A stretch of 64,000 nucleotides of DNA. Source: Escherichia phage JM10. The notes under the pieces were generated by a model. The model was not told the DNA's origin. It was given only the letters and a program-made list of their open reading frames with translations, and ran no database searches. How positions within the stretch are numbered: the stretch's first letter is position 1; every line of letters starts with the position of its first letter. Positions 7,238-62,152 of the stretch are shown here, one piece after another. A program made the position numbers and the translations under genes. The stretch lies in the sequence record PP400777. One strand, given 5' to 3'.

Positions 7238-7300
7238 TTTATTCTCCTCTTCACTTTTATTTTATAGGGCTACTATAACATAGCCCTATCTTGTTATAAA

Positions 7301-7693: not shown

Positions 7694-7778
7694 TTTGATT
7701 TCCTCATGTTGTTGATAGGTTTATACTAACACATCCAGGGAAGAAGTAAACAACTTTTTCGGCAATTTACAGATACTC

Positions 7779-7800
7779 AAAAGGGAGACCGAAGTCTCCC
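7779..7800 (-). terminator. Rho-independent terminator after gene 32
   Basis: Perfect hairpin GGGAGAC-UUCG-GUCUCCC (minus-strand RNA) followed by a U-run, 7 nt after the gene 32 stop. Confidence 0.8.
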
Positions 7801-7806
7801 AATTTA

Positions 7807-9811: not shown

Positions 9812-10058
9812 AAAGCTCGACTACCTCTTCGTTTTCAGCTTCAAATTGATCACGAGCGTCTTTATGATAAAGAACTAACAAACGATTAAACATTTTTCCA
9901 TCAACGCCAAGCTCTTCTTTAGCACGAGTACGAATGTCTTTAATCAGTTCATTATAACCAGAAATTTTAAGTTTGTTATCAGAAGCTTCCTTGACTAGTT
10001 TAGCCAGTTCTTCACCATGCACATCTTGATTAAATTCAACTGCTTCTTTCTTAGCCAT
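9789..10058 (-). CDS. dsbA: dsDNA-binding protein DsbA (late transcription enhancer)
   Basis: 89 aa from the internal ATG (listed ORF has a 6-codon extension overlapping gene 33); position between rnh and 33. Confidence 0.7.
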   Translation of the reverse strand: MAKKEAVEFNQDVHGEELAKLVKEASDNKLKISGYNELIKDIRTRAKEELGVDGKMFNRLLVLYHKDARDQFEAENEEVVELYDTVFTK

Positions 10059-10065
10059 GTTTACC

Positions 10066-10983: not shown

Positions 10984-11048
10984 ATGAACCTCTTGTTCAG
11001 TTAGTCAACTTTTCTATAGTAACACACTCATTTGAAAGCGTAAACTGG

Positions 11049-11056
11049 TATAAATA
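11049..11056 (+). promoter_or_regulatory. T4-type late promoter (TATAAATA) for gene 34
   Basis: Exact TATAAATA about 30 nt upstream of the gene 34 ATG, with AAGGA Shine-Dalgarno. Confidence 0.7.
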
Positions 11057-11086
11057 AGTATTATTGAAACAATAAAGGAAAAACGA

Positions 11087-14962: not shown

Positions 14963-14970
14963 GAGGTATT

Positions 14971-16098: not shown

Positions 16099-16103
16099 AT
16101 TTA

Positions 16104-16128
16104 GGGAGACTTCGGTCTCCCATTTTTG
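16104..16128 (+). terminator. Rho-independent terminator after gene 35
   Basis: GGGAGAC-UUCG-GUCUCCC hairpin followed by AUUUUUG. Confidence 0.75.
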
Positions 16129-16136
16129 TATAAATA
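16129..16136 (+). promoter_or_regulatory. T4-type late promoter (TATAAATA) for gene 36
   Basis: Exact TATAAATA about 25 nt upstream of the gene 36 ATG, AAGGAG Shine-Dalgarno. Confidence 0.7.
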
Positions 16137-16160
16137 TGGTATACATATAAGGAGACAACT

Positions 16161-16823
16161 ATGGCCGATTTAAAAGCTGGTAGTACAACTGGCGGTGCTG
16201 TTATATGGCATCAAGGTAATTTCCCTTTAATGCCAGCAGGTGATGACGTCCTGTATAAAACGTTTAAACTCTATTCAGAATATAATAAACCACAAGCTGC
16301 TGATAACGATTTCGTTTCTAAAGCTAATGGTGGTACTTACGCTGCAACTGTTCGATTTAACGGAGGCGTACATGTTCCTACTGTAGGTAGTAGTCAACAG
16401 TGTGGTGTTTATCCAGGTAACGGTGATGCAGCTACTTTTGATATGGCAAATATTGACATCGTTTCGTGGAATGGTATTGGTTTTAAGTCATCACAAGGTT
16501 CAGCAGACCGAACTGTTGTTATTAACGCTCGTACCGGTGATATTAATACGAAAGGCGTTGTATCTGCTTCAGGACAAGTAAGAAGCGATATGACTGCTCC
16601 GGTTGCAGCAAATGATCTCACAAGAAAAGATTATGTTGATGGACGAATAAATATTGTTACGGATAACGCAAATTCCCGTGTATTGCGTAAAGGCGATACA
16701 ATGACTGGTACTTTAACAGCACCAAACTTTTTCTCACAGAATCCGGCGTCTGAGGCTAATCATGTTCCTCGTTTCGACCAGATTGTAATTAAAGATTCTG
16801 TTCAAGATTTCGGCTATTATTAA
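16161..16823 (+). CDS. 36: Long tail fibre distal connector gp36
   Basis: 220-aa ORF in the T4 position. Confidence 0.85.
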
Positions 16824-16831
16824 GAGGACTT

Positions 16832-30846: not shown

Positions 30847-31947
30847 TTACGCTGTGAAGATTTTATCCCACATCGCAACAACTGCATCTCGGTTATACTT
30901 CTTCCATACTGCTTCAGCACGTTTAACTCGAGCTTCGTATGTGTCAGTGAATTCTAATACAGCTTTTGTGTAAAGCGCAACTACTTCTTTCTTAGGAGTA
31001 GAGGAATCAATTTCTACACGCACAGTATCTGGGTCGTATTCGAATGTCGCATGAGGATAATCCTTAAAAACTAACTGGATTACAGGGACACCTTTAGAGA
31101 TGGCTTCAATAGAACTATTCTCTACCGTACCTGTGTCAGGACACGTATTAATAAGTGCTTTAGCTGTTTTAAGACGTTCCATGATTTCACTGTGTGGAGC
31201 ATCAATAATAACAGGATATTTAGCTGGTGGGGCCCATTTGCTTGGACAATAACCAATACCATTTTCGCCTAGTGCTTTAATTGCTTCGAGAGCAACATCA
31301 GTACGACGCATTTTAGTGTCATAACGTTGTGCACTAATAATCAGATCAGTCGCCGGAAGAACTTCAGGTTTCTCATTCAAACAAATAACCGGATAATCTT
31401 CGGCTTCAAACAACGGATTTGCTCGCCAATAATCATAATCAATTTTGTCAGTCAGACCTGAAGTCATATAACAATATTTGCGTTCAAATTCACGGAAGGC
31501 TTTAGTAGGAGCATAACTCTTACCACCGTTCTTATGAATTTGAATAGTCTGGTCCCAAATTTGAACAATGCCACGAGATACCGGTTCAAATGGTGTTGCC
31601 ATAAAATTCTTATGAACTTTAGAGAGACCTGCGTCTTTAATTGCCTGAACGGTTAGTTTAGTCGGTTCCATAGTAACAACAAAATCGTATTCATGGATGC
31701 CGGCTAGTTCAACAATCTTACGAGCCATAGTATAACTCATACCTAGACTGAATTTTGTCAGATGACCAACAGGATGATGATTAACCTTCCAATCACCAAA
31801 TGTGTCATTATCAAAACCGATATAATCAATATCAGCACCGATGGACACAAGATATTTCAACACATTTAAATGTACTGCTTCAAGACCACCTTGTACACGG
31901 TCAGGATTAAATGGGACTGCGCGAGATGGGATAAACATAACTTTCAT
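30847..31947 (-). CDS. GT-B fold (GT4-like) glycosyltransferase; candidate DNA hmC sugar transferase
   Basis: 366-aa ORF; C-terminal motif TGTVENSSIEAISKGVPVIQ resembles the E-x-F-G...EA-M/I-A/S-x-G-x-PVI nucleotide-sugar binding motif of retaining GT-B enzymes; sits where T4 has gene 60/mobA. Confidence 0.65.
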   Translation of the reverse strand: MKVMFIPSRAVPFNPDRVQGGLEAVHLNVLKYLVSIGADIDYIGFDNDTFGDWKVNHHPVGHLTKFSLGMSYTMARKIVELAGIHEYDFVVTMEPTKLTVQAIKDAGLSKVHKNFMATPFEPVSRGIVQIWDQTIQIHKNGGKSYAPTKAFREFERKYCYMTSGLTDKIDYDYWRANPLFEAEDYPVICLNEKPEVLPATDLIISAQRYDTKMRRTDVALEAIKALGENGIGYCPSKWAPPAKYPVIIDAPHSEIMERLKTAKALINTCPDTGTVENSSIEAISKGVPVIQLVFKDYPHATFEYDPDTVRVEIDSSTPKKEVVALYTKAVLEFTDTYEARVKRAEAVWKKYNRDAVVAMWDKIFTA

Positions 31948-46806: not shown

Positions 46807-47466
46807 TTAACCTCGATTCATAAATGCATTAAATATTTGGTCATCAACAGAAATTTCTAATTCGACTTCAATTGCTTCAGCCTTTTCTTCAAGTGGTAAT
46901 TCGTATCCACACACTACAATTTTTTCATCGATATCAAAATATACAGAAGCAATACGATTAATGTTATTTTCAGTTAAGTCTAAATCAACATCAACATCTT
47001 TTTGACCTACACTTAAAGGATAACTAATACGGGTTATTTTATTATCTTTAACAAAGAGACCACCAACATACTCTGTACTACGTTTGAAGTTTACACGTTT
47101 CCGAAATGAAAGATATGAGGCATCTTTACCATGAGCCCTGCTCATAGGACATAATGAATAGCTAGAATAAGAGATGTCAAATCCTACACCTTCAATATGA
47201 GCCAACGCGCCATGATTAAACCAATTATAATCATATGCCAAATCCATTATATTGTAATATGTGAAAGGCACAGGATTAACATCATATGTTGTACCTTTAA
47301 AATCTGCCCAGGCAACGATTTCGTTATCTTTAACAATTACAAAAATTACACCAATATGGTATCCGTTATTATTTTCATTCGGCGTTATATTATAACATTG
47401 CGCATTAGGAAATTTACCATATTTAAATGGCGCATTTTTGTGCATATAATAAATCATATTATTCAC
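46807..47466 (-). CDS. Hypothetical protein (219 aa)
   Basis: ORF in the 61-41 cluster. Confidence 0.5.
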   Translation of the reverse strand: MNNMIYYMHKNAPFKYGKFPNAQCYNITPNENNNGYHIGVIFVIVKDNEIVAWADFKGTTYDVNPVPFTYYNIMDLAYDYNWFNHGALAHIEGVGFDISYSSYSLCPMSRAHGKDASYLSFRKRVNFKRSTEYVGGLFVKDNKITRISYPLSVGQKDVDVDLDLTENNINRIASVYFDIDEKIVVCGYELPLEEKAEAIEVELEISVDDQIFNAFMNRG

Positions 47467-51607: not shown

Positions 51608-52751
51608 GGTCGTTTTCTATATCTGCTGCAGACGGAGCATCAGAAGTTTTAACCGGAACTTTAGTTGTTGCTTTGCAATTAATAAGGTCGTTAACAGCGT
51701 CATCAACTTCTTTAATAGAAGAGATAGCACCTAGTTTATATTTAGTTTCAATTGCATCTCGGAAAGGCTTATGTTTAAACAACGGCCCCCAGAATTCTAC
51801 ACAATCAGTAGCTTTAGCACGCCATGATTTTTCTTCACGAATCATTTCACCTGTTTCTTCGTCAAGGAATTCACGAGCATACCACCCGGCTTTAGGCTTA
51901 ACTACAAAACCAATTTCAGTTGCCATTTCTAACAAGCCACTGAATGGGTCAATACCGCCATCAAAATTAACCGTGATCGGGAAAGTAGATTTTTCTTTAA
52001 CAGTACGAGATTTTTCAGCTTTCAACGTGAAGTCATAACCGGTCAATTCTGTACCTTCTTTAACCTGACGTTTAGAGATAAAAAATACCGTGTTGGCAGA
52101 ATAAAGAATACCTGTACCACCGCCCATAATCTCTTTAGGATACAATCCGCCGATTTCCATTGCGGTATGGTTAATTGCAACACACGGAATATCTTTAATA
52201 GTCAGATACGGGGTCACAATACGGAAAAGAGATTTAAGTGCCTTAGCACGAGACATATCACCTACAACTTTCTCGTTCAACGCATCTTCGGTTTCTTTCT
52301 TAGATGCAGTATTACCGATTGAATCGATAAAGATAATAACTTTATCACCACGTTCAATCGCGTCAAGCTGATTAGTCATATCGACTTTAAGTTGTTCGAC
52401 AGATTGAATCGGAGTATGAACTACACGGTCTAAATCAACACCCATTGAACGAAAATAAGATTCTGAAGCACCGAATTCTGAGTCATAAAACAAACAGATT
52501 GCATCTTTATATTTCTTCATATACGCTGCAACCATAGTTAGTCCAAACAATGTTTTAAAATGTTTAGAAGGTGCAGCAAAAATAGTCAAGCCTGATTGCA
52601 ATCCTGCATTCAGAGCACCGCCTAGTGCAATATTCAACATCGGAATACGAGTAGGGACTTCATCACGATTATTAAACAGCTTAGACTTAGTCAAGTCTGC
52701 AGTCATTTTAGAAGTAGAAGCTTTAATCAGACGAGATTTTAAATCAGACAT
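51579..52751 (-). CDS. uvsX: Recombinase UvsX (RecA homolog)
   Basis: 390-aa ORF; RecA-like ATPase core; acidic C-terminus. Confidence 0.92.
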   Translation of the reverse strand: MSDLKSRLIKASTSKMTADLTKSKLFNNRDEVPTRIPMLNIALGGALNAGLQSGLTIFAAPSKHFKTLFGLTMVAAYMKKYKDAICLFYDSEFGASESYFRSMGVDLDRVVHTPIQSVEQLKVDMTNQLDAIERGDKVIIFIDSIGNTASKKETEDALNEKVVGDMSRAKALKSLFRIVTPYLTIKDIPCVAINHTAMEIGGLYPKEIMGGGTGILYSANTVFFISKRQVKEGTELTGYDFTLKAEKSRTVKEKSTFPITVNFDGGIDPFSGLLEMATEIGFVVKPKAGWYAREFLDEETGEMIREEKSWRAKATDCVEFWGPLFKHKPFRDAIETKYKLGAISSIKEVDDAVNDLINCKATTKVPVKTSDAPSAADIENDLDEMEDFDE

Positions 52752-52850
52752 TGTATTTTTTCCATAGGCATCATTATATTTTACTCATGTTTAAAAGATA
52801 AGACGATTATATACTAAGGGTTATACAGCATTTAAAACTTTAAATGGCTC

Positions 52851-53399
52851 TTAACGAGCCCATTTGATGATTTCTGTAATCAAATCATTACGTTCGCTTG
52901 CATTAAATCCTATAACTTTGTTAGCACCATCATGATTAAGTAATTGATACGTTTGGATTTTGTTATGAATTGCAAACTCTTCAAAATGTGAAATGACTGT
53001 ATTAAAACCGAATGAAGACAAAGTAATAAGATCGTCTTCAAAACTTTCAGTCATTTCGTTACGTGTTAAAATAATTGTGAACACATCATGGTTTTGGCAA
53101 AGACGAACATAATCCTGTTCATAAACGTCAAGAACCGAGTCCGCATCTTGTCGAATACGTCCATAAACCCAGTTACTAATATATCCACGGTCTAATAGAT
53201 AAATCTTAGTAGGGTCTAAATAATTCAACATCGTTTCGAAACAGCCAACTTCATTTCGAGACTTAACATCGAAACGTCCATCAACTGTTCGTTTAGGGAA
53301 ATCAATCTTTACATATCTTTCACTAATTTCCATTATGTCATTAATGAAAGTTGTTTTACCAGCATTATCCGGGCCATCTACTAAAATAATTTTAGCCAT
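52851..53399 (-). CDS. P-loop nucleotide kinase (thymidylate-kinase-like)
   Basis: Walker A VDGPDNAGKTT near the N-terminus and a DRGYISNWVYG segment resembling the DRY..S..AYQ motif of dTMP kinases; 182 aa; occupies the T4 beta-glucosyltransferase locus. Confidence 0.55.
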   Translation of the reverse strand: MAKIILVDGPDNAGKTTFINDIMEISERYVKIDFPKRTVDGRFDVKSRNEVGCFETMLNYLDPTKIYLLDRGYISNWVYGRIRQDADSVLDVYEQDYVRLCQNHDVFTIILTRNEMTESFEDDLITLSSFGFNTVISHFEEFAIHNKIQTYQLLNHDGANKVIGFNASERNDLITEIIKWAR

Positions 53400-53400
53400 T

Positions 53401-54300
53401 TTATTCCTCGATTACGACATCTTCGTATTTAGGTATATTATACGGTGAAGAAATTAAAGCGTTAAAGTAGATGAACTCACCAAGACCTGGATGGAATACT
53501 TCTTCAGGATTTTCGAAATATTGAATCTTCGGACGTCCTTTAAGAATTTGATAGTACTCAGTTTTAGTTGGTTTAAAAATTCGAATCAACGCTTCTTCAG
53601 GATACTTATTTCTGTCGAAGCTATTATTTGGATCGGTTATATAAAGCGGTTGGCCTAATTGAATTGCACATTCAACCACTTGTTCAAAACGATAGCACGG
53701 GTCACTAATTCGAAATGGATGAAAAATACCATCTAGATGAATAGGAGCCAAATCACCTACAAGACGCTGCATGATGGAAGGACGTATAACTTTCTGCGTT
53801 ACGATAATCTTATTACCATCTGCACCTGCGTTAACCAGCACTTCTTTTTGACGTTCATTCAACACAGTAGTTTGAAGTGAACGATTAACCGACAACATAT
53901 CAGTTTTTAAGAATTCGTCAATATAAAAACGTGGTTTATTAGGGTCTGCAGTGATATTGAAATTGAATTCCACATCAAAAGCGCCGTCATATCCGGTGAT
54001 ATCTGTGATTAGAAAATCACAATCATAATAAGCAATTAATGAATCAACCACAAATTCATTTTCAGACCAGAAATATTTACGAGTGTTATACGCGTTATCT
54101 TTATACCATAATGGAACAAACTTAAATTCTGGGAAAAGACGTTCGCATTCTTTAATATCGGATGCATTACGTGGATATGTAATCACATCGCCTGGATTAG
54201 CACGGTGCAAATGAAGTTGGAAGTTGCCATCCTTAAGGATAGCATACTGTCCAGTTTCATAAGACCGCATACTCAAAATAGGTACGCGGAAAATAGCCAT
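53401..54300 (-). CDS. Hypothetical protein (299 aa) at the beta-glucosyltransferase locus; possible DNA-modification enzyme
   Basis: No recognisable catalytic motif by eye; ATGA-overlapped with gene 42; not similar to what I recall of T4 Bgt. Confidence 0.45.
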   Translation of the reverse strand: MAIFRVPILSMRSYETGQYAILKDGNFQLHLHRANPGDVITYPRNASDIKECERLFPEFKFVPLWYKDNAYNTRKYFWSENEFVVDSLIAYYDCDFLITDITGYDGAFDVEFNFNITADPNKPRFYIDEFLKTDMLSVNRSLQTTVLNERQKEVLVNAGADGNKIIVTQKVIRPSIMQRLVGDLAPIHLDGIFHPFRISDPCYRFEQVVECAIQLGQPLYITDPNNSFDRNKYPEEALIRIFKPTKTEYYQILKGRPKIQYFENPEEVFHPGLGEFIYFNALISSPYNIPKYEDVVIEE

Positions 54301-55016
54301 TAGTCAAGGAATCCTTTAACATAATCAAAATCACGTTCAAACACATGGGCACTTACCATGGTATGAGTATAATCACCAACTTCTACACCACATTCGTTAG
54401 CGATATAATGAAGTAATTTTCCTTGGAGATAAAAATCCAACTGCATAACAACAGCACAGTTCTGAGAACGCATATGACAGTGGGTATAAAGCTTACCATC
54501 ACGAATATAATAAGTCACTGAGTCAGTACATGGATATTCAAGCGTTTCGTCTGAATCAAGCAAAGCCTGATCAGAACTTTCTAGAATTTGGAACACAACT
54601 CTTCGAGAGTTAGGCTTCTCTTTAAGTTCTTTTAGAAGAGTTGGTAATTGGGCCGCAATGCGAGGACCATAGAAAGTGTTGAAGTTCGCCGGCAAAACAT
54701 CTGATTTTGGTTTAGAAATAAATTTAGCGACATTAGGATATGCCTTAAACGCTTCTTCTGCGTTGGTACCACCAGAAATCATAAACTTCCAGAAGTCTTC
54801 GGCATATTCATAAGAGATGCGGTTAATACGTGGGTCGGTCATTTTGAATGATGATGGAGTGTCAACAACTACTGTCATAGACCCAATTTCATTACAACGT
54901 CCAATACGAGAATCAGTTACGAATTCCGGGTTTTCTAAAATTTCACGATTGACTGCTTTAAATGCGGTTTGAAAATCTGCGGCTTTGATATATTTCATTG
55001 TGTTATGTTTTCCCAT
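54300..55016 (-). CDS. 42: dCMP hydroxymethylase gp42 (thymidylate-synthase fold)
   Basis: TS-family active-site pattern ...YPCTDSVTYYIRDGKLYTHCHMRSQNCAVVMQLDF (Cys nucleophile and RS.N segment); position between uvsX and 43 as in T4. Confidence 0.7.
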   Translation of the reverse strand: MGKHNTMKYIKAADFQTAFKAVNREILENPEFVTDSRIGRCNEIGSMTVVVDTPSSFKMTDPRINRISYEYAEDFWKFMISGGTNAEEAFKAYPNVAKFISKPKSDVLPANFNTFYGPRIAAQLPTLLKELKEKPNSRRVVFQILESSDQALLDSDETLEYPCTDSVTYYIRDGKLYTHCHMRSQNCAVVMQLDFYLQGKLLHYIANECGVEVGDYTHTMVSAHVFERDFDYVKGFLD

Positions 55017-55058
55017 GTTTACCTCAATACAATTTATTATATACTCAATTCGTAAAGC

Positions 55059-55298
55059 TTATTTGAATTTCTTGACAATGTTGATATAACGTAAAGCTTC
55101 AGCATCGATACTTCCAAGAACACTATGAAGAAATGCATCAGCGTAGTATTCCAATTGAACAGGTTCTTTAATCACTTTAGCCGCTTTAGTTTCAAACAGG
55201 CCCATCAGGGCCTGTTTAAGAATTTGTTCATTAGTGTTCAGTTTCATAGTCAAAATCTCTTCATTAAGTTGGTGGTTAAAAGTTTTTCTAGAAATCAT
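55059..55298 (-). CDS. Hypothetical small protein (79 aa)
   Basis: ORF with ATGA overlap to the Cys-rich gene upstream. Confidence 0.45.
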   Translation of the reverse strand: MISRKTFNHQLNEEILTMKLNTNEQILKQALMGLFETKAAKVIKEPVQLEYYADAFLHSVLGSIDAEALRYINIVKKFK

Positions 55299-56455
55299 TC
55301 CGGGTACCTCAAAGCGTCATCAGAGTTAGTTATATCAATAATAGATATAGAGTTTTCTGCTAACCCGTTTTTAGATAATTGACGTTTATAATATCTTTCA
55401 CAATATGTACACGTCGTCCCGCAGATTTCATTAGCACAATCGAAATCTGGATGTCTGAACCACCTTTTTTCTAAAAAGCCATCTAACAAAGAGGTTTCAA
55501 TATTTACTGTATGTGAAAACTCAGTTTCGTTTTCAAGAGTGAAAATAGTCTCTAAAGGCTTCCACAGTTCTAACAAATTACCTTCAAACTTTTCAGAAGC
55601 GTATGCTTCAAGAACTTTCAAAATGTAGTCTGTACTACCTGTACGTCCTGAAACTTTGAATTGAGTGATACCAATATCATTATAAAGTTTCAAATCTTGA
55701 GGACGAACAAAACGAGTTCTCAACCAGTTAAATGGGTCTGTATCACGAGCTTTAATACAGTGCTGCATAGGATATCCGTTTAAGGATTTAGCATCATCAG
55801 CTGTAACATCAGTACTATGGAAAATATAGCAAGAGTCACGATAGCTACAATGTGTTGTATACCCTTTACCAGCATTAGAACAGAACTCATTTACAAGAAC
55901 TTCAAATATTATATTGTTCTTATTGCAAAACTCTGCTGCACGCTTCAGGAAAGAAACTGAACGGTTCTTATGAATTCCACAGCAGACCTTTTTGATATTA
56001 TATTGGTCATGCAAGTATTTGATTTGAGTTACAGCATCGACATGTAGAATTGTTGAAACTTCAATCTCAATGTCTTTATTGACTTCACGAACAATTTCCA
56101 TAACAACAGGGTTAGCGATAGTAATACGCCATACGCCTATTGACCAAAGATACTGAACATAATCCTGAATAGCTTTCTTCTTCCACTCAACTAGTTCTCT
56201 TTTTGAACCAGGATTTATCGTGTTGAGTGTATAGTTAAAGCAAATACCTAATTCGTTACAACGTTTAACGTAATCTTCTAACATCTTTTTGTCAACGTCA
56301 GGAAGCCTAAAATCAGGTCTGGCTGCTACAAAAGCCATTTCTCTTGTAGAGCCGTATACTTCGTTTATCAAGCTATTAGGATAAGTTTTATTGAGCTCTA
56401 CGATTTTATCAAGAAGAGCTAAATCAAAATTCGTTCCGATTTTAAAAGTATTCAT
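55295..56455 (-). CDS. Cys-rich protein of unknown function (386 aa), part of the sugar-nucleotide module
   Basis: 13 Cys including clusters VCCGIH, EFCSNAGKGYTTHCSYRDSC and a C-terminal CANEICGTTCTYC (C-x4-C-x3-C-x2-C); a metal or Fe-S site is possible. Confidence 0.5.
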   Translation of the reverse strand: MNTFKIGTNFDLALLDKIVELNKTYPNSLINEVYGSTREMAFVAARPDFRLPDVDKKMLEDYVKRCNELGICFNYTLNTINPGSKRELVEWKKKAIQDYVQYLWSIGVWRITIANPVVMEIVREVNKDIEIEVSTILHVDAVTQIKYLHDQYNIKKVCCGIHKNRSVSFLKRAAEFCNKNNIIFEVLVNEFCSNAGKGYTTHCSYRDSCYIFHSTDVTADDAKSLNGYPMQHCIKARDTDPFNWLRTRFVRPQDLKLYNDIGITQFKVSGRTGSTDYILKVLEAYASEKFEGNLLELWKPLETIFTLENETEFSHTVNIETSLLDGFLEKRWFRHPDFDCANEICGTTCTYCERYYKRQLSKNGLAENSISIIDITNSDDALRYPE

Positions 56456-56511
56456 TTTTTTGCATCTCGCGTTAATTGATGCGATGGTTTTTGCAGGTCT
56501 TACTTAAATTA

Positions 56512-56898
56512 TTATAGATTAGGTTTATATGATTTAAATGTTTCGAATTCGCCTTTATTCATAAGAGCTTTGAATTCGTCAGGACGCATAGCTTTGTCGT
56601 CGATAATCCAATCATATACTGGTTTATGTGTTAGCAAATTATGGTACTTCAAGCCAATGTTTGCCAAGTTCTGAATCAGACTTGGGAGAATGTCAATTGC
56701 TATACGTCCAGGACCTACTGACTTCATACCGCGAGCAGTGTAAAGCGTTATTGTATGCCCTGCATCATACAGAGCATTAATGGCAGACACCATTTCGACG
56801 TCTGGTTTGAAGTTCACGTAATCACGATTGTTATTCCACTCTGTTATACAATCATCGACATCAAAACAAAGATTAAGCATGTTTTCTACACGGTGCAT
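56512..56898 (-). CDS. HAD-superfamily phosphatase (small, about 128 aa)
   Basis: Motif I-like FDVDDCIT near the N-terminus, motif II TLYTARG, motif IV-like IIDDKAMRPDE; start taken at the ATG overlapping the upstream stop (TAATG) with GGGAA SD. Confidence 0.6.
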   Translation of the reverse strand: MHRVENMLNLCFDVDDCITEWNNNRDYVNFKPDVEMVSAINALYDAGHTITLYTARGMKSVGPGRIAIDILPSLIQNLANIGLKYHNLLTHKPVYDWIIDDKAMRPDEFKALMNKGEFETFKSYKPNL

Positions 56899-58583
56899 TA
56901 GATTCGTTCCCATTGATGAGTGATATCGCCACCGATTGGACGATAGGAAACACCAGTTTCTTTATCAGTTAGTACCCATTTACCAGGATTTTTTGTAATC
57001 AGAGTAGCCGTTACAGGTTCTGCTACGTCATAACTAATAGAGCCGTCCTGAAGTACACGGCCCATGTTACGTAATTGCTTAGTCAGAAGTTCCATACCTT
57101 TATAATATGCGGCTACCGCTTTAAGTGGATTATTCTTGAAATAACCACCTAATGCAATCCAGATAATTGCCACTGCCAAATGATGATACTCGTTAAACGA
57201 ACTCATCTTTCCATATTTGTAAACTAATGGATTGATGTTAATAGTCACATTACAAGTTGTTTCATCAATAGTAAACTGTCCCCAGGTCGGATTAGCATTG
57301 AATTCATCATAACCTGAAACAGCATAAAGCACTTTAGCTTCATCATACAATTTTGGCCCGTAAATCTTGGTTTCGCCAAAATATCCACGAGGGTCGATAA
57401 ACTTGACTTCGCCGTTATCAGTAATCATAGTATTACTGAAGTTCGGGTCACCGTGAATAACAGAGTACTGCCCCTGAGAACGGTTATGATAACGAATAAG
57501 GTGTTCTAAAGCTTGTTTCAGCATTGGCTTCAGACGTCCAATCTTAGTGTAGTTCACATGTGTGATTTTACCAAATGAATCAATCAATGGTTGAATGCTT
57601 TCACAACGATCAATAACTTTCGTATAGAATTCTTTAGTGAAATCACGACGAACAGTTTCAGGACTTACAAAATAAGTGTCTGTGCTGAATTTCAGTGCAT
57701 CTAAAATTGCATCAACAATTTGTGGACGAGCAAGACTTGATTTGGATTTAATATATTCAAATGCCGGCTTACCTTTAATGCGTTCCATTTCAAAGTTATT
57801 TTCATTAACAGAAACTAACTGAGGAACTGAATCTGATTTCACTTTAAGATACCATGAAATCTCATCTTTCTGAAGAGCTCGACCTTGTTCAGTTAATGCG
57901 AATTTAGTTACAGTTTCTTCACCAATTTCAACTGCATTAAAACTACGATTAAGTTCACGAACTTCATGAGCTTTTTCAAGTTTAGGCATATCACCTAAAT
58001 CAATTATATTCATAAGCTCTGATTTATTGAATGCGCCGCTGTAAAGGAATTCTACAAAATCACGTCCTTTGCAGTATTCATGAATTTCCTCATCGGTAGA
58101 ACCCATATAGAATTCCCAGTCTTTGAACTGATAAATTCCTACAACATTACCACCTGTTGAACCTACGTTAGTGATATTTTCACCGTCGAAATTATAGCGA
58201 CATTCGTCACCCTTAACATAGATTGCGTTGACATTCCAAGACCATGAACCAAAATCAGGAATAATATCGCACCAGTTAACAATTACGTTATGGCCATCTA
58301 AATCTTTGTGTAATTTAGCAAGAGCATAAGCAGATCCGTATGCTTCATCAACTGTACGAATAGTCACATTGAACCCTTCTTGCTCACAATAAGCTCGAAC
58401 AGTTTCAGCAAATTTTGAATGAACTACTACAATAATTTCATCTGCGCCAAGGTCAGAATAAATTGTATACAAATTGCTCAGAATAGTGTCTTGTTTATAG
58501 TTAACAAGCACCTTAGGAATATGATGCGTTATTGGATACAAACGAGTTGCCAGTCCAGCACCAAGAATAACAGCTTTTTTCAT
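56898..58583 (-). CDS. Bifunctional sugar-1-phosphate nucleotidyltransferase (RmlA/GalU-like) / APH-fold sugar 1-kinase
   Basis: N-terminus MKKAVILGAGLATRLYPITHHIPKVLV matches the G-x-G-T-R-L signature of sugar-1-P nucleotidyltransferases; C-terminal VIHGDPNFSNTMITDNGEVKFIDPRGYFGE matches the HGD...N / D-x-E motifs of aminoglycoside/choline/anomeric-sugar kinases; 561 aa. Confidence 0.7.
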   Translation of the reverse strand: MKKAVILGAGLATRLYPITHHIPKVLVNYKQDTILSNLYTIYSDLGADEIIVVVHSKFAETVRAYCEQEGFNVTIRTVDEAYGSAYALAKLHKDLDGHNVIVNWCDIIPDFGSWSWNVNAIYVKGDECRYNFDGENITNVGSTGGNVVGIYQFKDWEFYMGSTDEEIHEYCKGRDFVEFLYSGAFNKSELMNIIDLGDMPKLEKAHEVRELNRSFNAVEIGEETVTKFALTEQGRALQKDEISWYLKVKSDSVPQLVSVNENNFEMERIKGKPAFEYIKSKSSLARPQIVDAILDALKFSTDTYFVSPETVRRDFTKEFYTKVIDRCESIQPLIDSFGKITHVNYTKIGRLKPMLKQALEHLIRYHNRSQGQYSVIHGDPNFSNTMITDNGEVKFIDPRGYFGETKIYGPKLYDEAKVLYAVSGYDEFNANPTWGQFTIDETTCNVTININPLVYKYGKMSSFNEYHHLAVAIIWIALGGYFKNNPLKAVAAYYKGMELLTKQLRNMGRVLQDGSISYDVAEPVTATLITKNPGKWVLTDKETGVSYRPIGGDITHQWERI

Positions 58584-58624
58584 GTTGTGGTCCTCATTGG
58601 TAAGTAGGAGTATTGTACACTATT

Positions 58625-58768
58625 CTAGTTAAAGCATTCATACTTCGCTTGTAGTCCAATCATAATCCATCCGATTATAAGAGTCGGAACCATTACTGGA
58701 GCCGTTAAGCTCCAGTAGATAGTCATGACAAGCATCAATAGTAAAAGTCCTATTGTTATTGCTTTCAT
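58625..58768 (-). CDS. Small membrane protein (47 aa), not in ORF track
   Basis: MKAITIGLLLLMLVMTIYWSLTAPVMVPTLIIGWIMIGLQAKYECFN; start overlaps the SIS gene stop (ATGA). Confidence 0.45.
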   Translation of the reverse strand: MKAITIGLLLLMLVMTIYWSLTAPVMVPTLIIGWIMIGLQAKYECFN

Positions 58769-59400
58769 TGCTCGCCTCGTAACATGGCACCTAGTGCACC
58801 GCCTGGATGGAACTTAAGGAAGTCATTAGAGGTAAATCCACGTTCAGACGAAAGGTTGATAGCAAACGTATCGATAAGCGCTAACAACAATGTAGTGGAC
58901 ATAGTCGGAGCCAGAGAATTCTCATCAACCTCTACTGCGATGCCTGTACAGAACGTATAATCAAAAAGAGCTTCGTATTCTTGTGGAATGTCAGGGTTAC
59001 AATGTAACAGAATCTGTTTAACCTGAGGACGAATCATACGAAGATGTTTAGCAACACCTATCATTTCTTCAGTCTTACCAGAACGACTGATGTGAACTAA
59101 TACATCATTAGGTGCAATAAATCCTGCGTCACCATGAGAATAATGCCCGGTGTTCAAATACATGCTAGGAATACCGAGTGAAGCAAAAGTCTCGGAAGCT
59201 TTAGTTGCGATATTAGCATTCTTACCAACACCTGTAATAATTACTCGGCTTTCATAATTACTAAGTCCCGGGCGTCGAAGAGTTTCTAGAATAGCATTAT
59301 AACGAGCAGGGTTTTGACTAATTACTTTGGCCATAGCGGCCAAAGAAGAAGCTTGTTTTATGATTGCGTCAATAGCGATAGTAATAGGAGTAGTTTTCAT
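58765..59400 (-). CDS. Arabinose-5-phosphate isomerase-like SIS-domain protein (KdsD/KpsF N-terminal domain, no CBS pair)
   Basis: SRVIITGVGKNANIATKASETFASLGIPSMYLNTGHYSHGDAGFIAPNDVLVHISRSGKTEEM and ...LAPTMSTT...FHPGGALG align motif-by-motif with the KdsD SIS domain as I recall it (GKVVVMGMGKSGHIG..ATFASTGTPSFF..HGDLGM..DVVIAISNSGESSE ... APTSSTT ... SHPGGALG); 211 aa. Confidence 0.75.
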   Translation of the reverse strand: MKTTPITIAIDAIIKQASSLAAMAKVISQNPARYNAILETLRRPGLSNYESRVIITGVGKNANIATKASETFASLGIPSMYLNTGHYSHGDAGFIAPNDVLVHISRSGKTEEMIGVAKHLRMIRPQVKQILLHCNPDIPQEYEALFDYTFCTGIAVEVDENSLAPTMSTTLLLALIDTFAINLSSERGFTSNDFLKFHPGGALGAMLRGEQ

Positions 59401-59440
59401 ATTTCTCTCATTTAATTAGTTTACCGTCCATGACATTATA

Positions 59441-62152
59441 TCAAAAATCGAACATATCGAACAGAGATGCTTTCTTCTCGTAATCGAGTTTCGCTGCTGA
59501 TGTGAATCCTTCAAGTGGTTTAATAAATGTCTTCTCAAGGAGAACAGTGTAGTCCATCCAATGAAGTACGTCGTCTTTAATTAAATCTGTGATTTCAGTG
59601 CCAGAAGGCCATGCGATACATTTATCACCGAATGGGTTTCCTTCACGTAAAGGCAGAACATATACTTTTTCACCTTCTACAACTTGCGGTGCATCGATAT
59701 TACCTTTGATAGCCCGGTTATACGTCAGAATTCCACGAATATGGAACGGGCATTTGGGACCAGGGAATCCACCGACATCATATTTAGCAATGTTATTCGC
59801 AGAAGATACCGACGCGATGCTAATATAATTCAATTGACGGAATTCTTTTTCAAACTCTTTAAAATATTCTTGTAATGATTCTTCACCTTCTTGAAGCATA
59901 CGACGAATACATTCTTTAAGAGCTTTCTGTACTGCTTTAGGGGTCGAAGATTTCTGAGTCTCTAGACCCATGATTTTGAGTTTAGGCTCAGCGTAACGAG
60001 TGCCTTCCATATCCCACACGTTTAATGCATAACGTTTCTTACCAGTCCAGAATCCACCAATACCTTTAGAACCGAGCGGAGGACCAGCGATAGCTTCTCG
60101 GTCCATGAACATTAAGTGTTGTTTATTGTTCATGTATTCACACATTTCACGGAAACCTCTATCAATAGCAGGTTCCATACGTTCACGAGCGAACTTATCT
60201 AAGAAGTCTACCCAATGGTTGGTATCACGGAATTTAGATTCACCAACCTTATCGATAATTTTATCAGCAGATACGTAAATAGAGTCTGTATCACCATAAA
60301 GAACGAAAGCTTCACCTTCTGTACCACAAACTTCATTCAGATATTCATTAACTTTACGTTCAATCCACTGTAAAGCCATTTGCCCGAATGTTGTGATTGC
60401 AGTAGCATTACGCAAATCATAATAACGGAACCAAACGTTTCCAAGTGCACCATAAAGCGAGTTGATGAGCAATTTACGGTTAATCTGTGCAGTCATACCT
60501 GCAACTTCAGTACGTTGAGCTCTAAACAACATTTCATTAAGAGATTTAGCAGACAACTTTTTAATCTTTTCTTTAATCTCAACGCTGAAGTCGAAACGAT
60601 AATCAACATCTAACGGTTCGTCAACAGAAAGATTAGGATTATGCAATGCCTCTTTAATTATTTCACCATTACGTTGAGCTGCAAGCATGTAACCTTTATG
60701 TTCTTTACGTTGATTAAAGACCTTAGTGATTTCAGTTGGAACTACACCATCACGGTCTTTATAATACATCATGCCGTTAGGAGAACAACTGTACACATCT
60801 GAAGGACGTTCAGCGATTGCGTTAATATAATCATGCAGTGGAGCTACTTTAAACGTTCCTGCTATTGTTTCCGGGCTAATATTCACTTGGCGAATAATAC
60901 TTGGATACAGAGATGTAAGGTCGAAACTCATTACATATTTGTATCGATTTGGAATAGGTTCCTTAACAAAAGCGCCAGGATAAGGTTGAACTGGGTGAGA
61001 ACGACCTTGTGGAATCACCTTGTTCTGTTCTTTAAGGCTATTAAAAATAATAGCATCCCATGTTTTAATTGGGCTAAACACAGATTGAATCTGTATCTTA
61101 GCATAATAACCCATGTCCAAACTCAAGTTGATGAACTGACGCTTAGCATCAATTTGCAATACACGATACACGTCGATAATGTTATAAGAAATATATCGTT
61201 GGTGATTGCTTTCACGAAGCTTAGAAATAGGGCCGTCATATTTCAGTTTACCAACGTTCAATTCAAATTCTGAAATGTAATCCAGAGAATACGACGGTTG
61301 ATTGGTAAAAGAGAATTTTTTGTAAAGGTCAATGTAATCAAGAACAGAGATACCGAACAATGTAATGATTTCACGAGAACCATACATGTTTTCGATAACT
61401 TTAACACGAGTTTTACGATGTGGTGATAAACGTTTCGCAGTAGATTCGCCAAAAATATTCTTGATTCGGTTATACACATATGGAATATCAAATGACTCAA
61501 CGTTCCATCCAGTCAAAATGACAGGAGTTTTCTGTTGCCAGAAGTTGAGATATTCCATCAACAATTCTTTTTCGTTATCGAACGGCATATAAATGATTTT
61601 ATCAATAATTTCGGATGGAACTTCATCACCGCCTTGTTCTTGAAGCTTAGCCGCAATTTCGATAGACCATTCTTCTACATTACCATACGGAGAATTCAAT
61701 AGATCAAATACGTAGAACCTGTCGTCAATTGAGTCATAATGGGTGATAGCATCAATCGGATGTTTTGCTTGTGACGGCTCAGGGAACCCATCCGGAGATG
61801 TTACTTCGATGTCGAAGTTAGCCACACGAATTTTTGTATGGTCGTATTTGATTTCATAGTTATAAGTGTCAGACAAATACGCCAATTTGAAATCGTCCAT
61901 GCCAAGTGCTTCAAGTCCGATATCTTCCATGCGTTTAATCCATTGGGAGGCATCACGCATATTAGCGAACAACTTACGAGTACACGGCTTACCGTAGATA
62001 TCGAAATATTTCGTAGCCTGACTTTCTGGACAATGAGCAAACAGTGATGGTTTATATTCTACTTCACGAGTACGTTCACGGCCATTAGAATCGATGTAAC
62101 GTTCAAAAATTGAATCACCAATCTGTTCAACCGTTAAGTAAAATTCTTTCAT
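59441..62152 (-). CDS. 43: DNA polymerase gp43 (family B)
   Basis: 903 aa; exo motifs FDIEV and YNIIDV, pol motifs SLYPSII and YGDTDS; N-terminal sequence matches what I recall of the RB69 polymerase. Confidence 0.97.
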   Translation of the reverse strand: MKEFYLTVEQIGDSIFERYIDSNGRERTREVEYKPSLFAHCPESQATKYFDIYGKPCTRKLFANMRDASQWIKRMEDIGLEALGMDDFKLAYLSDTYNYEIKYDHTKIRVANFDIEVTSPDGFPEPSQAKHPIDAITHYDSIDDRFYVFDLLNSPYGNVEEWSIEIAAKLQEQGGDEVPSEIIDKIIYMPFDNEKELLMEYLNFWQQKTPVILTGWNVESFDIPYVYNRIKNIFGESTAKRLSPHRKTRVKVIENMYGSREIITLFGISVLDYIDLYKKFSFTNQPSYSLDYISEFELNVGKLKYDGPISKLRESNHQRYISYNIIDVYRVLQIDAKRQFINLSLDMGYYAKIQIQSVFSPIKTWDAIIFNSLKEQNKVIPQGRSHPVQPYPGAFVKEPIPNRYKYVMSFDLTSLYPSIIRQVNISPETIAGTFKVAPLHDYINAIAERPSDVYSCSPNGMMYYKDRDGVVPTEITKVFNQRKEHKGYMLAAQRNGEIIKEALHNPNLSVDEPLDVDYRFDFSVEIKEKIKKLSAKSLNEMLFRAQRTEVAGMTAQINRKLLINSLYGALGNVWFRYYDLRNATAITTFGQMALQWIERKVNEYLNEVCGTEGEAFVLYGDTDSIYVSADKIIDKVGESKFRDTNHWVDFLDKFARERMEPAIDRGFREMCEYMNNKQHLMFMDREAIAGPPLGSKGIGGFWTGKKRYALNVWDMEGTRYAEPKLKIMGLETQKSSTPKAVQKALKECIRRMLQEGEESLQEYFKEFEKEFRQLNYISIASVSSANNIAKYDVGGFPGPKCPFHIRGILTYNRAIKGNIDAPQVVEGEKVYVLPLREGNPFGDKCIAWPSGTEITDLIKDDVLHWMDYTVLLEKTFIKPLEGFTSAAKLDYEKKASLFDMFDF

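Follow-up and report, generated by a model that had tools for sequence, protein, structure and literature searches.

Gene content of the block

A block of five ORFs on the minus strand lies in the window analysed here, a 64,000-nucleotide stretch of Escherichia phage JM10 (PP400777), bounded by the genes for DNA polymerase and for a thymidylate-synthase (TS) homolog (Table 1). All five had been called in a first-pass annotation and were found at the same positions: they encode a SIS-domain protein, an AfhE-like nucleotidyltransferase/kinase fusion, an AfhF-like HAD phosphatase, a protein of the U32 family (with 13 Cys, in line with its earlier description as Cys-rich), and a small 79-aa product. 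A sixth ORF of 47 aa, absent from that annotation, is also present in the block; it encodes hydrophobic residues and starts at an ATG that overlaps the stop codon of the SIS gene. The RB69 record describes gp54 as "similar to T4 42-imm intercistronic region".

The base composition of the block is the same as that of its flanks, and the region is ~98% identical, over its full length, to 152 phage records, all of them RB69-like Mosigvirus; this is a conserved gene block and no chance ORF pattern. Start-to-stop overlaps occur in the AfhE-like/HAD pair and in the U32/79-aa pair, where the start of the 79-aa ORF overlaps the U32 stop, suggesting translational coupling. Gene order is shared with the RB69 (gp45-gp55, gp3) and HY126 Afh system, the proteins are essentially the same, and nothing of substance differs. 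One technical point concerns the RB69 reference, in which gp52/53 are split because of a sequencing error and gp46/47 by frameshift errors; both ORFs are intact in JM10. We think that the block probably comprises two functional units, a UDP-arabinofuranose pathway and the U32 protein.

Table 1. Features of the JM10 block and of associated genes, with RB69 counterparts
Feature	Position	Strand	Counterpart or assignment
SIS ORF, 211 aa	58765-59400	(-)	RB69 gp55 homolog, putative arabinose-5-phosphate isomerase
Hydrophobic small ORF, 47 aa	58625-58768	(-)	In RB69 gp54 region
AfhE-like nucleotidyltransferase/kinase fusion, 561 aa	56898-58583	(-)	RB69 gp52:53
AfhF-like HAD phosphatase, 133 aa	56512-56913	(-)	RB69 gp51
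Cys-rich U32-family protein, 386 aa	55295-56455	(-)	RB69 gp50
Small ORF, 79 aa	55059-55298	(-)	RB69 ORF049c
Thymidylate-synthase homolog, 238 aa	54300-55016	(-)	RB69 gp48, 5-hydroxy-dCMP synthase
Glycosyltransferase	53401-54300	(-)	RB69 gp46:47 homolog, putative first DNA arabinosyltransferase
P-loop nucleotide kinase	52851-53399	(-)	RB69 gp45, thymidylate-kinase-like
Second glycosyltransferase	30847-31947	(-)	RB69 gp3 homolog
DNA polymerase, 903 aa	59441-62152		Other flank of the five-ORF block

Arabinose activation and the modified base

The SIS protein matches Pfam SIS (9.6e-10), the NCBIfam KpsF/GutQ and KdsD families (8.9e-32 and 3.9e-30, both below curated cutoffs and spanning ~150-160 positions of models of 268 and 328 positions), and PDB 3etn (9.6e-25), 5uqi and 2xhz. 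The Pfam and NCBIfam check returned KpsF/GutQ and KdsD, not GmhA, which supports its initial description as KdsD-like; the isomerase assignment of RB69 gp55 is computational (PMC13326640). The proposed fusion is borne out as well: residues 3-99 of the 561-aa protein match Pfam NTP_transferase (8.4e-10) and contain the GxGxxTRL motif (G8-A-G-L-A-T-R-L), residues ~308-409 give weak kinase-fold matches (Fructosamin_kin, EcKL, RIO1, APH) and include H377-G-D-x4-N and an IDP at 396, and the protein matches PDB 1jyk at 2e-5. The phosphatase carries a D18-V-D-D motif, belongs with the "capsule biosynthesis phosphatase" family TIGR01689 (4.3e-13), as expected for a HAD enzyme, and is 100% identical to PDB 9IQW over residues 5-133.

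That these three proteins make the activated arabinose attached to the DNA of RB69-type phages is already published; the nucleotide-activated D-arabinose supply for DNA hypermodification proposed from the JM10 sequence agrees with the assignments made for RB69 gp55, gp52:53 and gp51 (PMC6024577; PMC13326640). In the biochemistry by He et al. 2026 on the near-identical phage HY126, as relayed in PMC13326640, AfhE is a kinase and UDP-arabinose pyrophosphorylase: Ara-1,5-P2 is reportedly formed from Ara5P by its C-terminal kinase-fold domain and turned into Ara-1-P by AfhF, after which the N-terminal nucleotidyltransferase of AfhE forms UDP-Araf from Ara-1-P and UTP. Ara-1,5-bisphosphate is likewise reported there as the kinase product in close relatives.

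In RB69-type DNA the arabosyl groups are ether-linked to 5-hydroxycytosine (PMC13326640), a base identified, as opposed to hmC, by NMR/MS and 18O2 labelling (PMC13326640; also PMC13390438); hydrolysed DNA of close relatives is reported to contain 5-hydroxy-dC (243 Da), not 5-hm-dC. RB69 gp48 is a flavin/O2-dependent 5-hydroxy-dCMP synthase of demonstrated activity, which requires a reductant, and the TS homolog alone yields 5-hydroxy-dC in E. coli (PMC13326640). The JM10 TS homolog is ~97% identical to PDB 9IQC/9IR2/9IQU, and its residues C163, E160, N186 and D194 correspond to EcThyA C146, L143E, D169N and N177D. The identity to 9IQC and the D169N/N177D/L143E signature rule out a dCMP hydroxymethylase, as which this neighbour had first been taken, and identify it as a 5-hydroxy-dCMP synthase. 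The first glycosyltransferase (gp46:47), assigned computationally (PMC13326640), gave no match in Pfam and PDB sequence searches; every T4-like locus examined has a counterpart of it, by both position and sequence. The second one, located between rIIA and the topoisomerase gene, in the same position as RB69p003, matches PDB 9IQZ/9IR0 over all 366 residues (E 3e-250) and is essentially identical to 9IQZ. The P-loop kinase has weak dTMP-kinase and AAA matches, which fits the thymidylate-kinase-like label of gp45 in the RB69 annotation and in a published table (PMC13326640).

We are highly confident that the first unit is a UDP-D-arabinofuranose pathway feeding 5-hydroxycytosine arabinosylation, although the activities were measured on HY126 and RB69 proteins. 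From ribulose-5-P the SIS isomerase would form arabinose-5-P, which would be phosphorylated at C1 by the kinase domain at the C-terminus of the 561-aa enzyme; the HAD phosphatase would take off the C5 phosphate, and the N-terminal nucleotidyltransferase domain would produce UDP-arabinofuranose. The adjoining TS homolog, using flavin and O2, would supply 5-hydroxy-dCMP, and the two glycosyltransferases would put arabinose on 5-hydroxycytosine in DNA; the isomerase and glycosyltransferase assignments, partly computational, are putative.

This system shares with that of T4 the neighbourhood, between gene 43 and uvsX, and the strategy, in which a TS homolog replaces dCMP at the nucleotide level and the DNA is then glycosylated. 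By contrast, the JM10-type base is 5-hydroxy-C with an ether-linked sugar and not 5-hydroxymethyl-C, its hydroxylase uses flavin and O2 whereas T4 gp42 uses folate, and the sugar donor is made by the phage, whereas the alpha- and beta-glucosyltransferases of T4 draw on host UDP-glucose. The logic of the pathway is identical to that of ADP-/GDP-heptose synthesis, which employs GmhA, HldE or HddA, GmhB and a nucleotidyltransferase: a SIS isomerase, an anomeric kinase yielding a bisphosphate, a HAD enzyme removing the distal phosphate, and nucleotidyl transfer, with a bifunctional kinase/nucleotidyltransferase in both. The two differ in the sugar (heptose versus pentose), in the SIS type (GmhA versus KdsD) and in the kinase fold, protein-kinase-like/APH in the phage and ribokinase-type in HldE. 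Modelled RB69 gp51 and DLP3 gp81 phosphatases structurally match GmhB (PMC13326640).

The U32-family protein and its gene neighbourhoods

The 386-aa protein matches Pfam Peptidase_U32 above the curated cutoff (7.3e-11), a family with a TIM-barrel fold. The U32 domain and this fold are shared with the bacterial factors RlhA (ho5C2501 in 23S rRNA), TrhP (ho5U34 in tRNA) and UbiU/UbiV (anaerobic ubiquinone synthesis), from which the phage proteins are nevertheless distant: among four E. coli paralogs, their family profile aligns best to RlhA (hhalign, E 1.1e-5, 205 columns), and matches to TrhP and UbiU/UbiV are weaker. RlhA is an rRNA cytidine-C5 hydroxylase with two essential cysteines, C169 and C176 (PMC5727448), which align with C203 and C209 of the phage protein. 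Nine Cys are invariant across 71 homologs, down to 46% identity, and presumably bind Fe-S; among them are four in the core (C192, C203, C209, C233) and those of a CX4CX3CX2C set near the C-terminus. The canonical CX6CX15CX3/4C motif is only partly kept: a CX5C pair aligns, displaced Cys would have to supply the other ligands, and the second canonical Cys is a Gly in the MAFFT register. Extra C-terminal Cys occur in both RlhA and the phage protein, whereas the DUF3656 region and the C-terminal extension of RlhA are missing from the latter.

Hydroxylation by U32 proteins is independent of O2 and relies on 4Fe-4S clusters and prephenate (PMC6747719, PMC10990095), although, according to PMC10990095, their direct hydroxylase activity had not been demonstrated in vitro. 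The JM10 protein is 99.5% identical to RB69 gp50 and is among the best-conserved of the cluster, with 79-87% identity across genera versus 65-84% for the polymerase and 42-71% for AfhE-like proteins. The accessible RB69/HY126 literature gives no roles for gp49, gp50 and gp54, apart from an undiscussed table label of gp50 as "sugar or heterocycle reductase" (PMC13326640), and we did not find gp50 described there as an oxygen-independent cytosine hydroxylase. The coupled 79-aa ORF has no match in Pfam, NCBIfam or PDB, is limited to Mosigvirus, Tegunavirus and a few others, where it is often truncated or frameshifted, and is unrelated to the chorismate mutase that fills this slot in other genera.

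The distance between U32 and the TS homolog never exceeds four genes in T4-like phages, and in most T4-like genera other than Mosigvirus a chorismate mutase gene stands beside U32. Kanagawavirus, Marfavirus, Tegunavirus, Bragavirus and Shewanella Thanatos have a chorismate mutase that matches CM_2 above the Pfam cutoff no more than three genes away from U32, directly downstream in three of those genera, and the two stay adjacent where the cluster is rearranged; none of the three U32-less phages has a chorismate mutase. Seven unrelated viral or metagenomic loci have U32 abutting a DAHP synthase (NCBIfam 2.6e-70), and in five of them this synthase carries a fused chorismate mutase domain. Some of the diverse loci combine U32 with SIS and AfhE, others with TAGT and UDP-galactopyranose mutase; in unrelated viral loci its immediate neighbours are homologs of the first glycosyltransferase, and genes for a dUTPase_2-type NTP pyrophosphatase, dCMP deaminase and a thymidylate-kinase-like kinase lie around it. 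No TS homolog resembling 5-hydroxy-dCMP synthase was present in 39 diverse U32 loci (619 kb; 8-10 kb flanks). U32 is missing from phages of Acinetobacter, a strictly aerobic host, and from E. coli Dhakavirus JS10 and Serratia 4S, phages of facultative anaerobes, where it is therefore not required; as all of these carry the sugar genes, U32 is dispensable for arabinosylation.

Alternative readings and the candidate role of U32

The first-pass scheme, read literally, joined all five genes in one NDP-arabinose pathway, with Ru5P turned into Ara5P, then by the HAD enzyme into free arabinose, by the kinase into Ara-1-P and by the nucleotidyltransferase into the sugar donor, and ended in transfer to hmC supplied by a hydroxymethylase of the gene 42 type. 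Its domain content fits on paper, the function labels in Table 1 of PMC13326640 give the same step order, and arabinosyl-hmC was the 2018 report (PMC6024577), but we judge it highly improbable: the text of PMC13326640, citing the HY126 biochemistry, places the kinase before the phosphatase via Ara-1,5-bisphosphate, so that free arabinose is no intermediate, the acceptor is 5-hydroxycytosine, the JM10 TS homolog bears the D169N signature, and other phages make the same sugar with neither U32 nor the 79-aa ORF. What stands of that pathway is the SIS, fusion and HAD part; U32 and the 79-aa ORF drop out of it. For U32 itself, GenBank annotations ("peptidase", "collagenase-like protease") and the historical family name favour a collagenase-type peptidase, a function that we consider extremely improbable given that characterised bacterial members are Fe-S hydroxylation factors and that invariant Cys sets in a nucleotide-metabolism context are unlike a protease. 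Hydroxylation of RNA (ho5C in rRNA or ho5U in tRNA), tuning host or phage translation with the cluster position incidental, would agree with RlhA as nearest E. coli paralog and with RlhA and TrhP being RNA enzymes; it is very unlikely in view of the deoxynucleotide-metabolism and DNA-glycosylation neighbourhood, constant across unrelated phages, and of the missing RlhA regions.

Two further possibilities keep U32 closer to arabinosylation. It might act in the sugar branch as a reductase, epimerase or tailoring enzyme of arabinose phosphate or UDP-arabinose, for instance in furanose handling, as may be suggested by its location, with the HAD phosphatase on one side and base-modifying genes on the other, by its place after SIS and AfhE homologs in several unrelated viral loci, by a downstream ORF with weak SDR/epimerase similarity in some loci and by the gp50 label (PMC13326640). 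This is improbable, however, because Acinetobacter phages, which arabinosylate 5-hydroxycytosine, lack U32, the described cluster of DLP3 (gp76-83), which makes tri-arabosyl chains, has no U32 counterpart (PMC13326640), U32 also accompanies galactofuranose/TAGT-type glycosylation genes without SIS or AfhE, and a sugar role would not account for why U32 recurs next to chorismate mutase and DAHP synthase. Alternatively, U32 could be an accessory of the TS-type hydroxylase, transferring electrons from Fe-S to flavin or serving as a protective or assembly factor; proximity to the TS homolog in T4-like phages, the reductant needed by the flavin enzyme and conserved Cys suggestive of redox chemistry are consistent with this. 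We regard it as unlikely, since the 39 diverse loci have no TS homolog in their flanks, the TS homolog needs no U32 to function in E. coli or in Acinetobacter phages, and the prephenate-pathway neighbours indicate the family's own hydroxylation chemistry. To our knowledge, moreover, no U32 member acts on sugars, which weighs against a sugar-branch role.

We give about an even chance to the reading, drawn from sequence and gene context, that the U32 protein would provide an anaerobic route to 5-hydroxycytosine and belong to the base and not the sugar branch. The 386-aa protein, perhaps with the coupled 79-aa ORF, would act as an Fe-S enzyme that hydroxylates cytosine at C5 independently of O2, with oxygen from prephenate and most likely a deoxycytidine nucleotide as substrate. 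The chemistry of the bacterial U32 factors requires prephenate and hydroxylates pyrimidines at C5 or aromatic rings, and phage U32 genes pair with prephenate-pathway enzymes; unlike those factors, this candidate activity is phage-encoded within deoxynucleotide and DNA-glycosylation clusters. The reading is favoured by the high conservation of U32, by its absence from the phages of strictly aerobic Acinetobacter and by the 39 loci that have U32 beside glycosyltransferase homologs and no such TS homolog in their flanks; against it stand the lack of U32 in JS10 and Serratia 4S, the frequent proximity of U32 to sugar-activation genes and the formation of 5-hydroxy-dC in E. coli by the TS homolog alone. 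Mosigviruses would rely on prephenate from the host, whereas in most other genera a phage-encoded chorismate mutase stands by U32. The proposed pair of TS homolog and U32 would parallel the paired host routes TrhO/TrhP and UbiIHF/UbiUV. The sugar-activation part of the system was already known, and the hydroxylase role of gp50 is what we infer in addition; if true, it would make the same modified base possible while the enteric host grows anaerobically.

Gene block and arabinose route

The five minus-strand ORFs (211, 561, 133, 386 and 79 aa) that the first-pass annotation had reported for this region are all present. They are flanked on one side by a family-B DNA polymerase of 903 aa and on the other by a thymidylate-synthase (TS) homolog of 238 aa; further downstream come a 299-aa ORF, a P-loop protein of 182 aa and UvsX. 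Base composition is uniform over the block region, and the 4.3-kb block aligns along its entire length, at ~98% identity, with 152 phage records, every one of them RB69-like (Mosigvirus); its equivalents in the RB69 reference are gp55, gp53:52, gp51, gp50 and gp49, and the TS homolog corresponds to gp48. A scan of 52700-59600 for promoters and terminators gave counts no higher than the shuffled expectation. An additional, strongly hydrophobic ORF of 47 aa (MKAITIGLLLLMLVMTIYWSLTAPVMVPTLIIGWIMIGLQAKYECFN), missed by that annotation, has an ATG overlapping the stop of the SIS gene; RB69 marks gp54, at the same position, as 'similar to T4 42-imm intercistronic region', and the product may be an Imm-like membrane peptide. 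The GenBank labels of the block are misleading: the HAD phosphatase appears as 'phosphoheptose isomerase' or 'capsule biosynthesis protein', the 561-aa protein as 'bifunctional protein GlmU', the 386-aa protein as 'peptidase/collagenase' and the 5-hydroxy-dCMP synthase as 'dCMP hydroxymethylase'. The window also encodes AdfA (anti-DarT factor A, 219 aa; Pfam E 6.6e-120), a counter-defence protein directed at the toxin-antitoxin system DarTG.

Pfam, NCBIfam and PDB matches, together with sequence motifs, bear out the earlier domain calls for the three sugar enzymes. The 211-aa SIS protein matches the NCBIfam models KpsF/GutQ (8.9e-32) and KdsD (3.9e-30), below full-length cutoffs and over ~150-160 of their 268 and 328 positions, and resembles the solved phosphosugar isomerases PDB 3etn (9.6e-25), 5uqi and 2xhz. 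No GmhA-type match appeared in the NCBIfam search, and this ranking rules out a GmhA-type (heptose) isomerase in favor of the KdsD type first proposed. The 561-aa ORF is intact, with an N-terminal NTP_transferase domain (8.4e-10), weak C-terminal APH, fructosamine-kinase and EcKL matches, and clear GxGxxTRL and HGDxxxxN motifs, while the 133-aa HAD protein has a DVDD motif and is 100% identical to PDB 9IQW over residues 5-133. The window therefore encodes the architecture of AfhE of phage HY126 (one polypeptide with a nucleotidyltransferase followed by a kinase fold), an AfhF-type HAD and a KdsD/GutQ-type SIS. Arabinose was found in RB69 DNA by Thomas et al. 2018 (PMC6024577). According to PMC13326640, which cites He et al. 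2026, the HY126 route leads from Ru5P to Ara5P (isomerase), Ara-1,5-bisphosphate (AfhE kinase domain), Ara-1-P (AfhF phosphatase) and UDP-arabinofuranose (AfhE nucleotidyltransferase domain); Ara5P kinase, 5-phosphatase and UDP-Ara pyrophosphorylase activities, and arabosyl-5-hydroxy-dC in virion DNA, are reported for HY126 and RB69. The sugar-pathway idea was thus right and already published for these phages, but the proposed release of free arabinose by the HAD enzyme before the kinase acts does not agree with the route as given there, in which the kinase precedes the phosphatase and free arabinose is no intermediate. The arabinose module of RB69-type phages, which explains their evasion of restriction and CRISPR, is already characterised, and confirming it in the window adds little.

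In the T4 glucosyl-hydroxymethylcytosine (hmC) system a folate-dependent dCMP hydroxymethylase lies next to gene 43, whereas here we find a TS homolog with the signature of a 5-hydroxy-dCMP synthase. Mapped by the conserved 31-residue Cys-to-Asp spacing from the catalytic C163, and numbered on what we take to be the E. coli ThyA sequence, its residues E160, C163, N186 and D194 correspond to ThyA L143E, C146, D169N and N177D. The signature consists of L143E, D169N and N177D (PMC13326640). The TS homolog is ~97% identical to PDB 9IQC, 9IR2 and 9IQU, and a 366-aa ORF in the rIIA-topoisomerase gap, homologous to RB69 gp3, is essentially identical to the glycosyltransferase PDB 9IQZ/9IR0. Because the accession codes are consecutive, we infer that 9IQC/9IR2/9IQU, 9IQW and 9IQZ/9IR0 are HY126 proteins, 9IQC being the HY126 hydroxylase. 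D169N and the near-identity to 9IQC exclude a T4-type folate-dependent dCMP hydroxymethylase beside gene 43. RB69 gp48, with bound flavin, makes 5-hydroxy-dCMP using oxygen from 18O2, and Lee et al. 2026 showed that arabinose is ether-linked to 5-hydroxycytosine, not to hmC (PMC13326640); an independent 2026 paper calls the earlier hmC assignment erroneous (PMC13390438). The acceptor is therefore not the hmC assumed by the first-pass annotation.

U32 protein and its companions in T4-like phages

The Cys-rich 386-aa protein (hereafter U32) matches Pfam Peptidase_U32 (PF01136) above the curated cutoff and has the U32 TIM-barrel fold, with a confident AlphaFold model (71 homologs; pLDDT 93, pTM 0.91); PDB sequence searches with U32 and the 79-aa ORF gave chance-level matches only. 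All 13 cysteines are identical in six phage genera and nine (C158, C192, C203, C209, C233, C340, C345, C349, C352) are invariant in 71 homologs, down to 46% identity, in the sets C192-x10-C203-x5-C209-x23-C233 and, C-terminally, C340-x4-C345-x3-C349-x2-C352. The exact 4Fe-4S ligand pattern CX6CX15CX3/4C is not present in the phage family; UbiU and UbiV, two of its E. coli paralogs, themselves depart from it (PMC6747719). As the canonical four-Cys spacing is not kept, we regard the predicted binding of an Fe-S cluster by phage U32 as plausible at most. In hhalign comparisons of the family profile with four E. coli paralogs, RlhA scored best (E 1.1e-5, 205 columns), followed by progressively worse matches to TrhP, UbiU and UbiV. 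The alignment lays phage "C-SYRDSCYIFHS" on RlhA "CVAYSGQCYISHA" and therefore places C203/C209 on C169/C176, both essential in RlhA (PMC5727448). RlhA is required for 5-hydroxycytidine in 23S rRNA and needs Fe-S biogenesis, prephenate and conserved cysteines (PMC5727448), UbiU/UbiV are 4Fe-4S proteins of O2-independent ubiquinone hydroxylation (PMC6747719), and prephenate is the oxygen donor of U32 hydroxylation (PMC10990095).

By tblastn, the U32 gene occurs in 221 phage records, each at least 81.6% identical, and the AfhE-like gene in 376, at 25-100% identity (42-100% in T4-like phages). Across nine loci compared with the window, identities were 79-87% for U32, 61-84% for the polymerase, 68-82% for the TS homolog and 42-71% for the AfhE-like protein. 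Such conservation is unusual for a supposedly accessory gene; in the compared loci L001-L005 and L008, from genera whose polymerases share 65-84% identity, the cross-genus identity of U32 is equalled solely by UvsX (some genera) and by the small HAD phosphatase of Entb_45, an Enterobacter phage. A tally of organism names found no Acinetobacter among the 221 U32 records, and 57 Acinetobacter phage records have the AfhE-like gene. The Lazarus locus contains SIS, AfhE, HAD, TS, glycosyltransferase (GT) and kinase genes and lacks U32, which is also absent from E. coli Dhakavirus JS10 and Serratia 4S. Since all these phages have the AfhE-like route without it, U32 is dispensable for arabinosylation, and the five genes do not form the single pathway originally suggested: U32-less loci keep SIS, AfhE and HAD. 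The idea that U32 can be strictly predicted from the physiology of the host was rejected: it fits the Acinetobacter phages but fails for JS10 and Serratia 4S.

At the position taken in the window by the 79-aa ORF, Entb_45 has a 79-aa gene for a type II chorismate mutase (CM) (CM_2 score 40.9 bits, cutoff 27; PDB 1ybz, 3.5e-8). CM occurs in 51 phage records; in five compared lineages (Kanagawavirus, Marfavirus, Tegunavirus, Bragavirus and Shewanella Thanatos) it is at most three genes away from U32, directly downstream of it in three of the five, every copy scoring above the Pfam cutoff; even in the rearranged Thanatos-2 cluster the two genes are still adjacent. None was found in three U32-less loci, nor, by tblastn and a custom HMM, anywhere in the 64-kb window, so that Mosigviruses would rely on host prephenate. 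In the locus of Klebsiella phage Marfa (L025) there is no CM match between U32 and the TS homolog, whose ORF starts are ~1.2 kb apart; Kpn BM7 (L002), annotated as the same genus, does carry CM. Given that Mosigvirus also lacks it, CM may have been lost more than once. The window's 79-aa ORF was rejected as an AroQ (type II) CM: it does not show the CM_2 profile with its conserved Arg/Lys/Glu/Ser/Gln catalytic set, and it has no Pfam or NCBIfam match, no BLASTP similarity to the Entb_45 CM and an hhalign probability of 0.2%, and in Tegunavirus CM and a homolog of this ORF stand side by side. Its homologs are limited to Mosigvirus-like phages, Tegunavirus and a few others, and many copies are shortened to 47-58 aa or carry frameshifts, although the Mosigvirus genomes concerned are otherwise near-identical and U32 in them is at least 99% identical. 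The overlap between the start of the ORF and the stop of U32 hints at coupling of the two genes.

U32 loci beyond T4-like phages

A protein search returned ~250 U32 homologs at 46-58% identity, and a scan of viral contigs located 52 U32 loci. U32 directly follows a homolog of the first GT in eight loci and accompanies GT, SIS and AfhE homologs in seven others; three loci have a TET-associated GT and/or a UDP-galactopyranose mutase, both in two of the three. A Pfam census of the 136 nearest neighbors was headed by DNA polymerase III alpha (9), thymidylate kinase (8), DAHP synthase (DAHPS; 7) and CM (5). DAHPS, with or without a CM domain, stands beside U32 in seven non-T4-like viral loci (NCBIfam 2.6e-70 vs 2.9e-17 for Kdo8P synthase), and five of the seven have a fused C-terminal CM domain (see table). 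This repeated independent pairing of U32 with prephenate-making enzymes fits the known chemistry of the U32 family. The fusion spans the first step of the shikimate pathway and the prephenate-forming one.

One viral locus (L054) has the order dUTPase_2-type pyrophosphatase, GT-like, thymidylate-kinase-like, GT homolog, U32, polymerase and RecA. Phage DNA polymerase III alpha has an N-terminal uracil-DNA-glycosylase domain in three cases, and these genomes also carry U32, dCMP deaminase and thymidylate-kinase-like genes. Another cluster (L014), with two U32 paralogs, contains in addition a radical SAM/SPASM protein and a nucleoside deoxyribosyltransferase and adjoins a dockerin-bearing GH43; it has the look of a cluster for nucleoside modification, carried by an anaerobic Firmicute or a prophage of one, a setting suggested by the dockerin-bearing glycoside hydrolase nearby.

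Coordinates of features in the window and in compared viral loci (L numbers)
Sequence	Feature	Coordinates	Strand	Remarks
Window	366-aa ORF, RB69 gp3 homolog	30847-31947		
Window	AdfA	46807-47466	-	
Window	First GT, 299 aa	53401-54300	-	
Window	TS homolog, RB69 gp48	54300-55016	-	
Window	79-aa ORF, RB69 gp49	55059-55298	-	
Window	U32, RB69 gp50	55295-56455	-	
Window	47-aa ORF	58625-58768	-	
L049	DAHPS-CM fusion	6411-7430		adjoins U32
L050	DAHPS-CM fusion	9-968		adjoins U32
L052	DAHPS-CM fusion	6321-7373		adjoins U32
L053	DAHPS-CM fusion	6332-7384		adjoins U32
L063	DAHPS-CM fusion	9079-10194		adjoins U32
L016	Uracil-DNA-glycosylase-polymerase III alpha	1423-3561		
L021	Uracil-DNA-glycosylase-polymerase III alpha	3391-7986		
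L017	Uracil-DNA-glycosylase-polymerase III alpha	1428-3566		
L014	Cluster with two U32 paralogs	10001-17428		with NT5C 5'-nucleotidase, PnuC-like transporter, deoxynucleoside kinase

Proposed role of U32

The simplest reading is that phage U32 would be an O2-independent cytosine C5 hydroxylase; we consider its chances evenly balanced because it draws on context and family analogy only. Several other roles can be envisaged. The protein could be a sugar-tailoring enzyme, and a table in PMC13326640, the only place where that paper mentions RB69 gp50, calls it a "sugar or heterocycle reductase". Nevertheless, U32 tracks GT and deoxynucleotide genes whatever the sugar, so that a role tied to the base, and not to the sugar, is probable. 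It might instead act as a redox helper for the TS homolog; among the flanks of 39 diverse U32 loci (619 kb; custom HMM) there was no TS-type hydroxylase, the sole match being one ordinary thymidylate synthase that keeps D169 and N177. Finally, U32 could be an RNA hydroxylase, the closest paralog RlhA serving 23S rRNA, or a true peptidase, as its Pfam family name has it; the deoxynucleotide genes around it speak against both.

Extending the hydroxylase reading, U32 would found a phage subfamily of prephenate-dependent, O2-independent Fe-S hydroxylases that produce 5-hydroxy-(deoxy)cytidine, a proposal we hold just as likely to be wrong as right. Enteric T4-like phages would have in it an anaerobic twin of their flavin/O2 TS-type hydroxylase, redundant with that enzyme; many uncultured phages, which probably infect anaerobes, would have it as their sole hydroxylase, and a phage CM or DAHPS-CM fusion would raise the supply of the oxygen donor, prephenate. 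Full-text searches, with He et al. 2026 (Nat Chem Biol; doi 10.1038/s41589-026-02150-z) and Mahler et al. 2025 (Cell Host Microbe; doi 10.1016/j.chom.2025.06.005) outside their scope, found no link of U32, CM or prephenate to phage 5-hydroxycytosine, and this specific and testable hypothesis is apparently unreported.

If true, this would explain how gut phages maintain complete DNA modification under anoxia, a condition in which the published flavin/O2 enzyme is unable to act. It would also, to our knowledge, be the first case of a virus drawing on prephenate as oxygen donor, and it would account for the CM genes of T4-like phages, otherwise without explanation in the literature surveyed. As of 2024 there was no in vitro assay of a U32 hydroxylase, since the substrates described so far were ribosome precursors, tRNA and quinones of the membrane (PMC10990095); the field could thus gain a small soluble substrate, dCMP. 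U32 would also provide a genomic marker for DNA modification based on 5-hydroxypyrimidines in uncultured phages that have no TS homolog.
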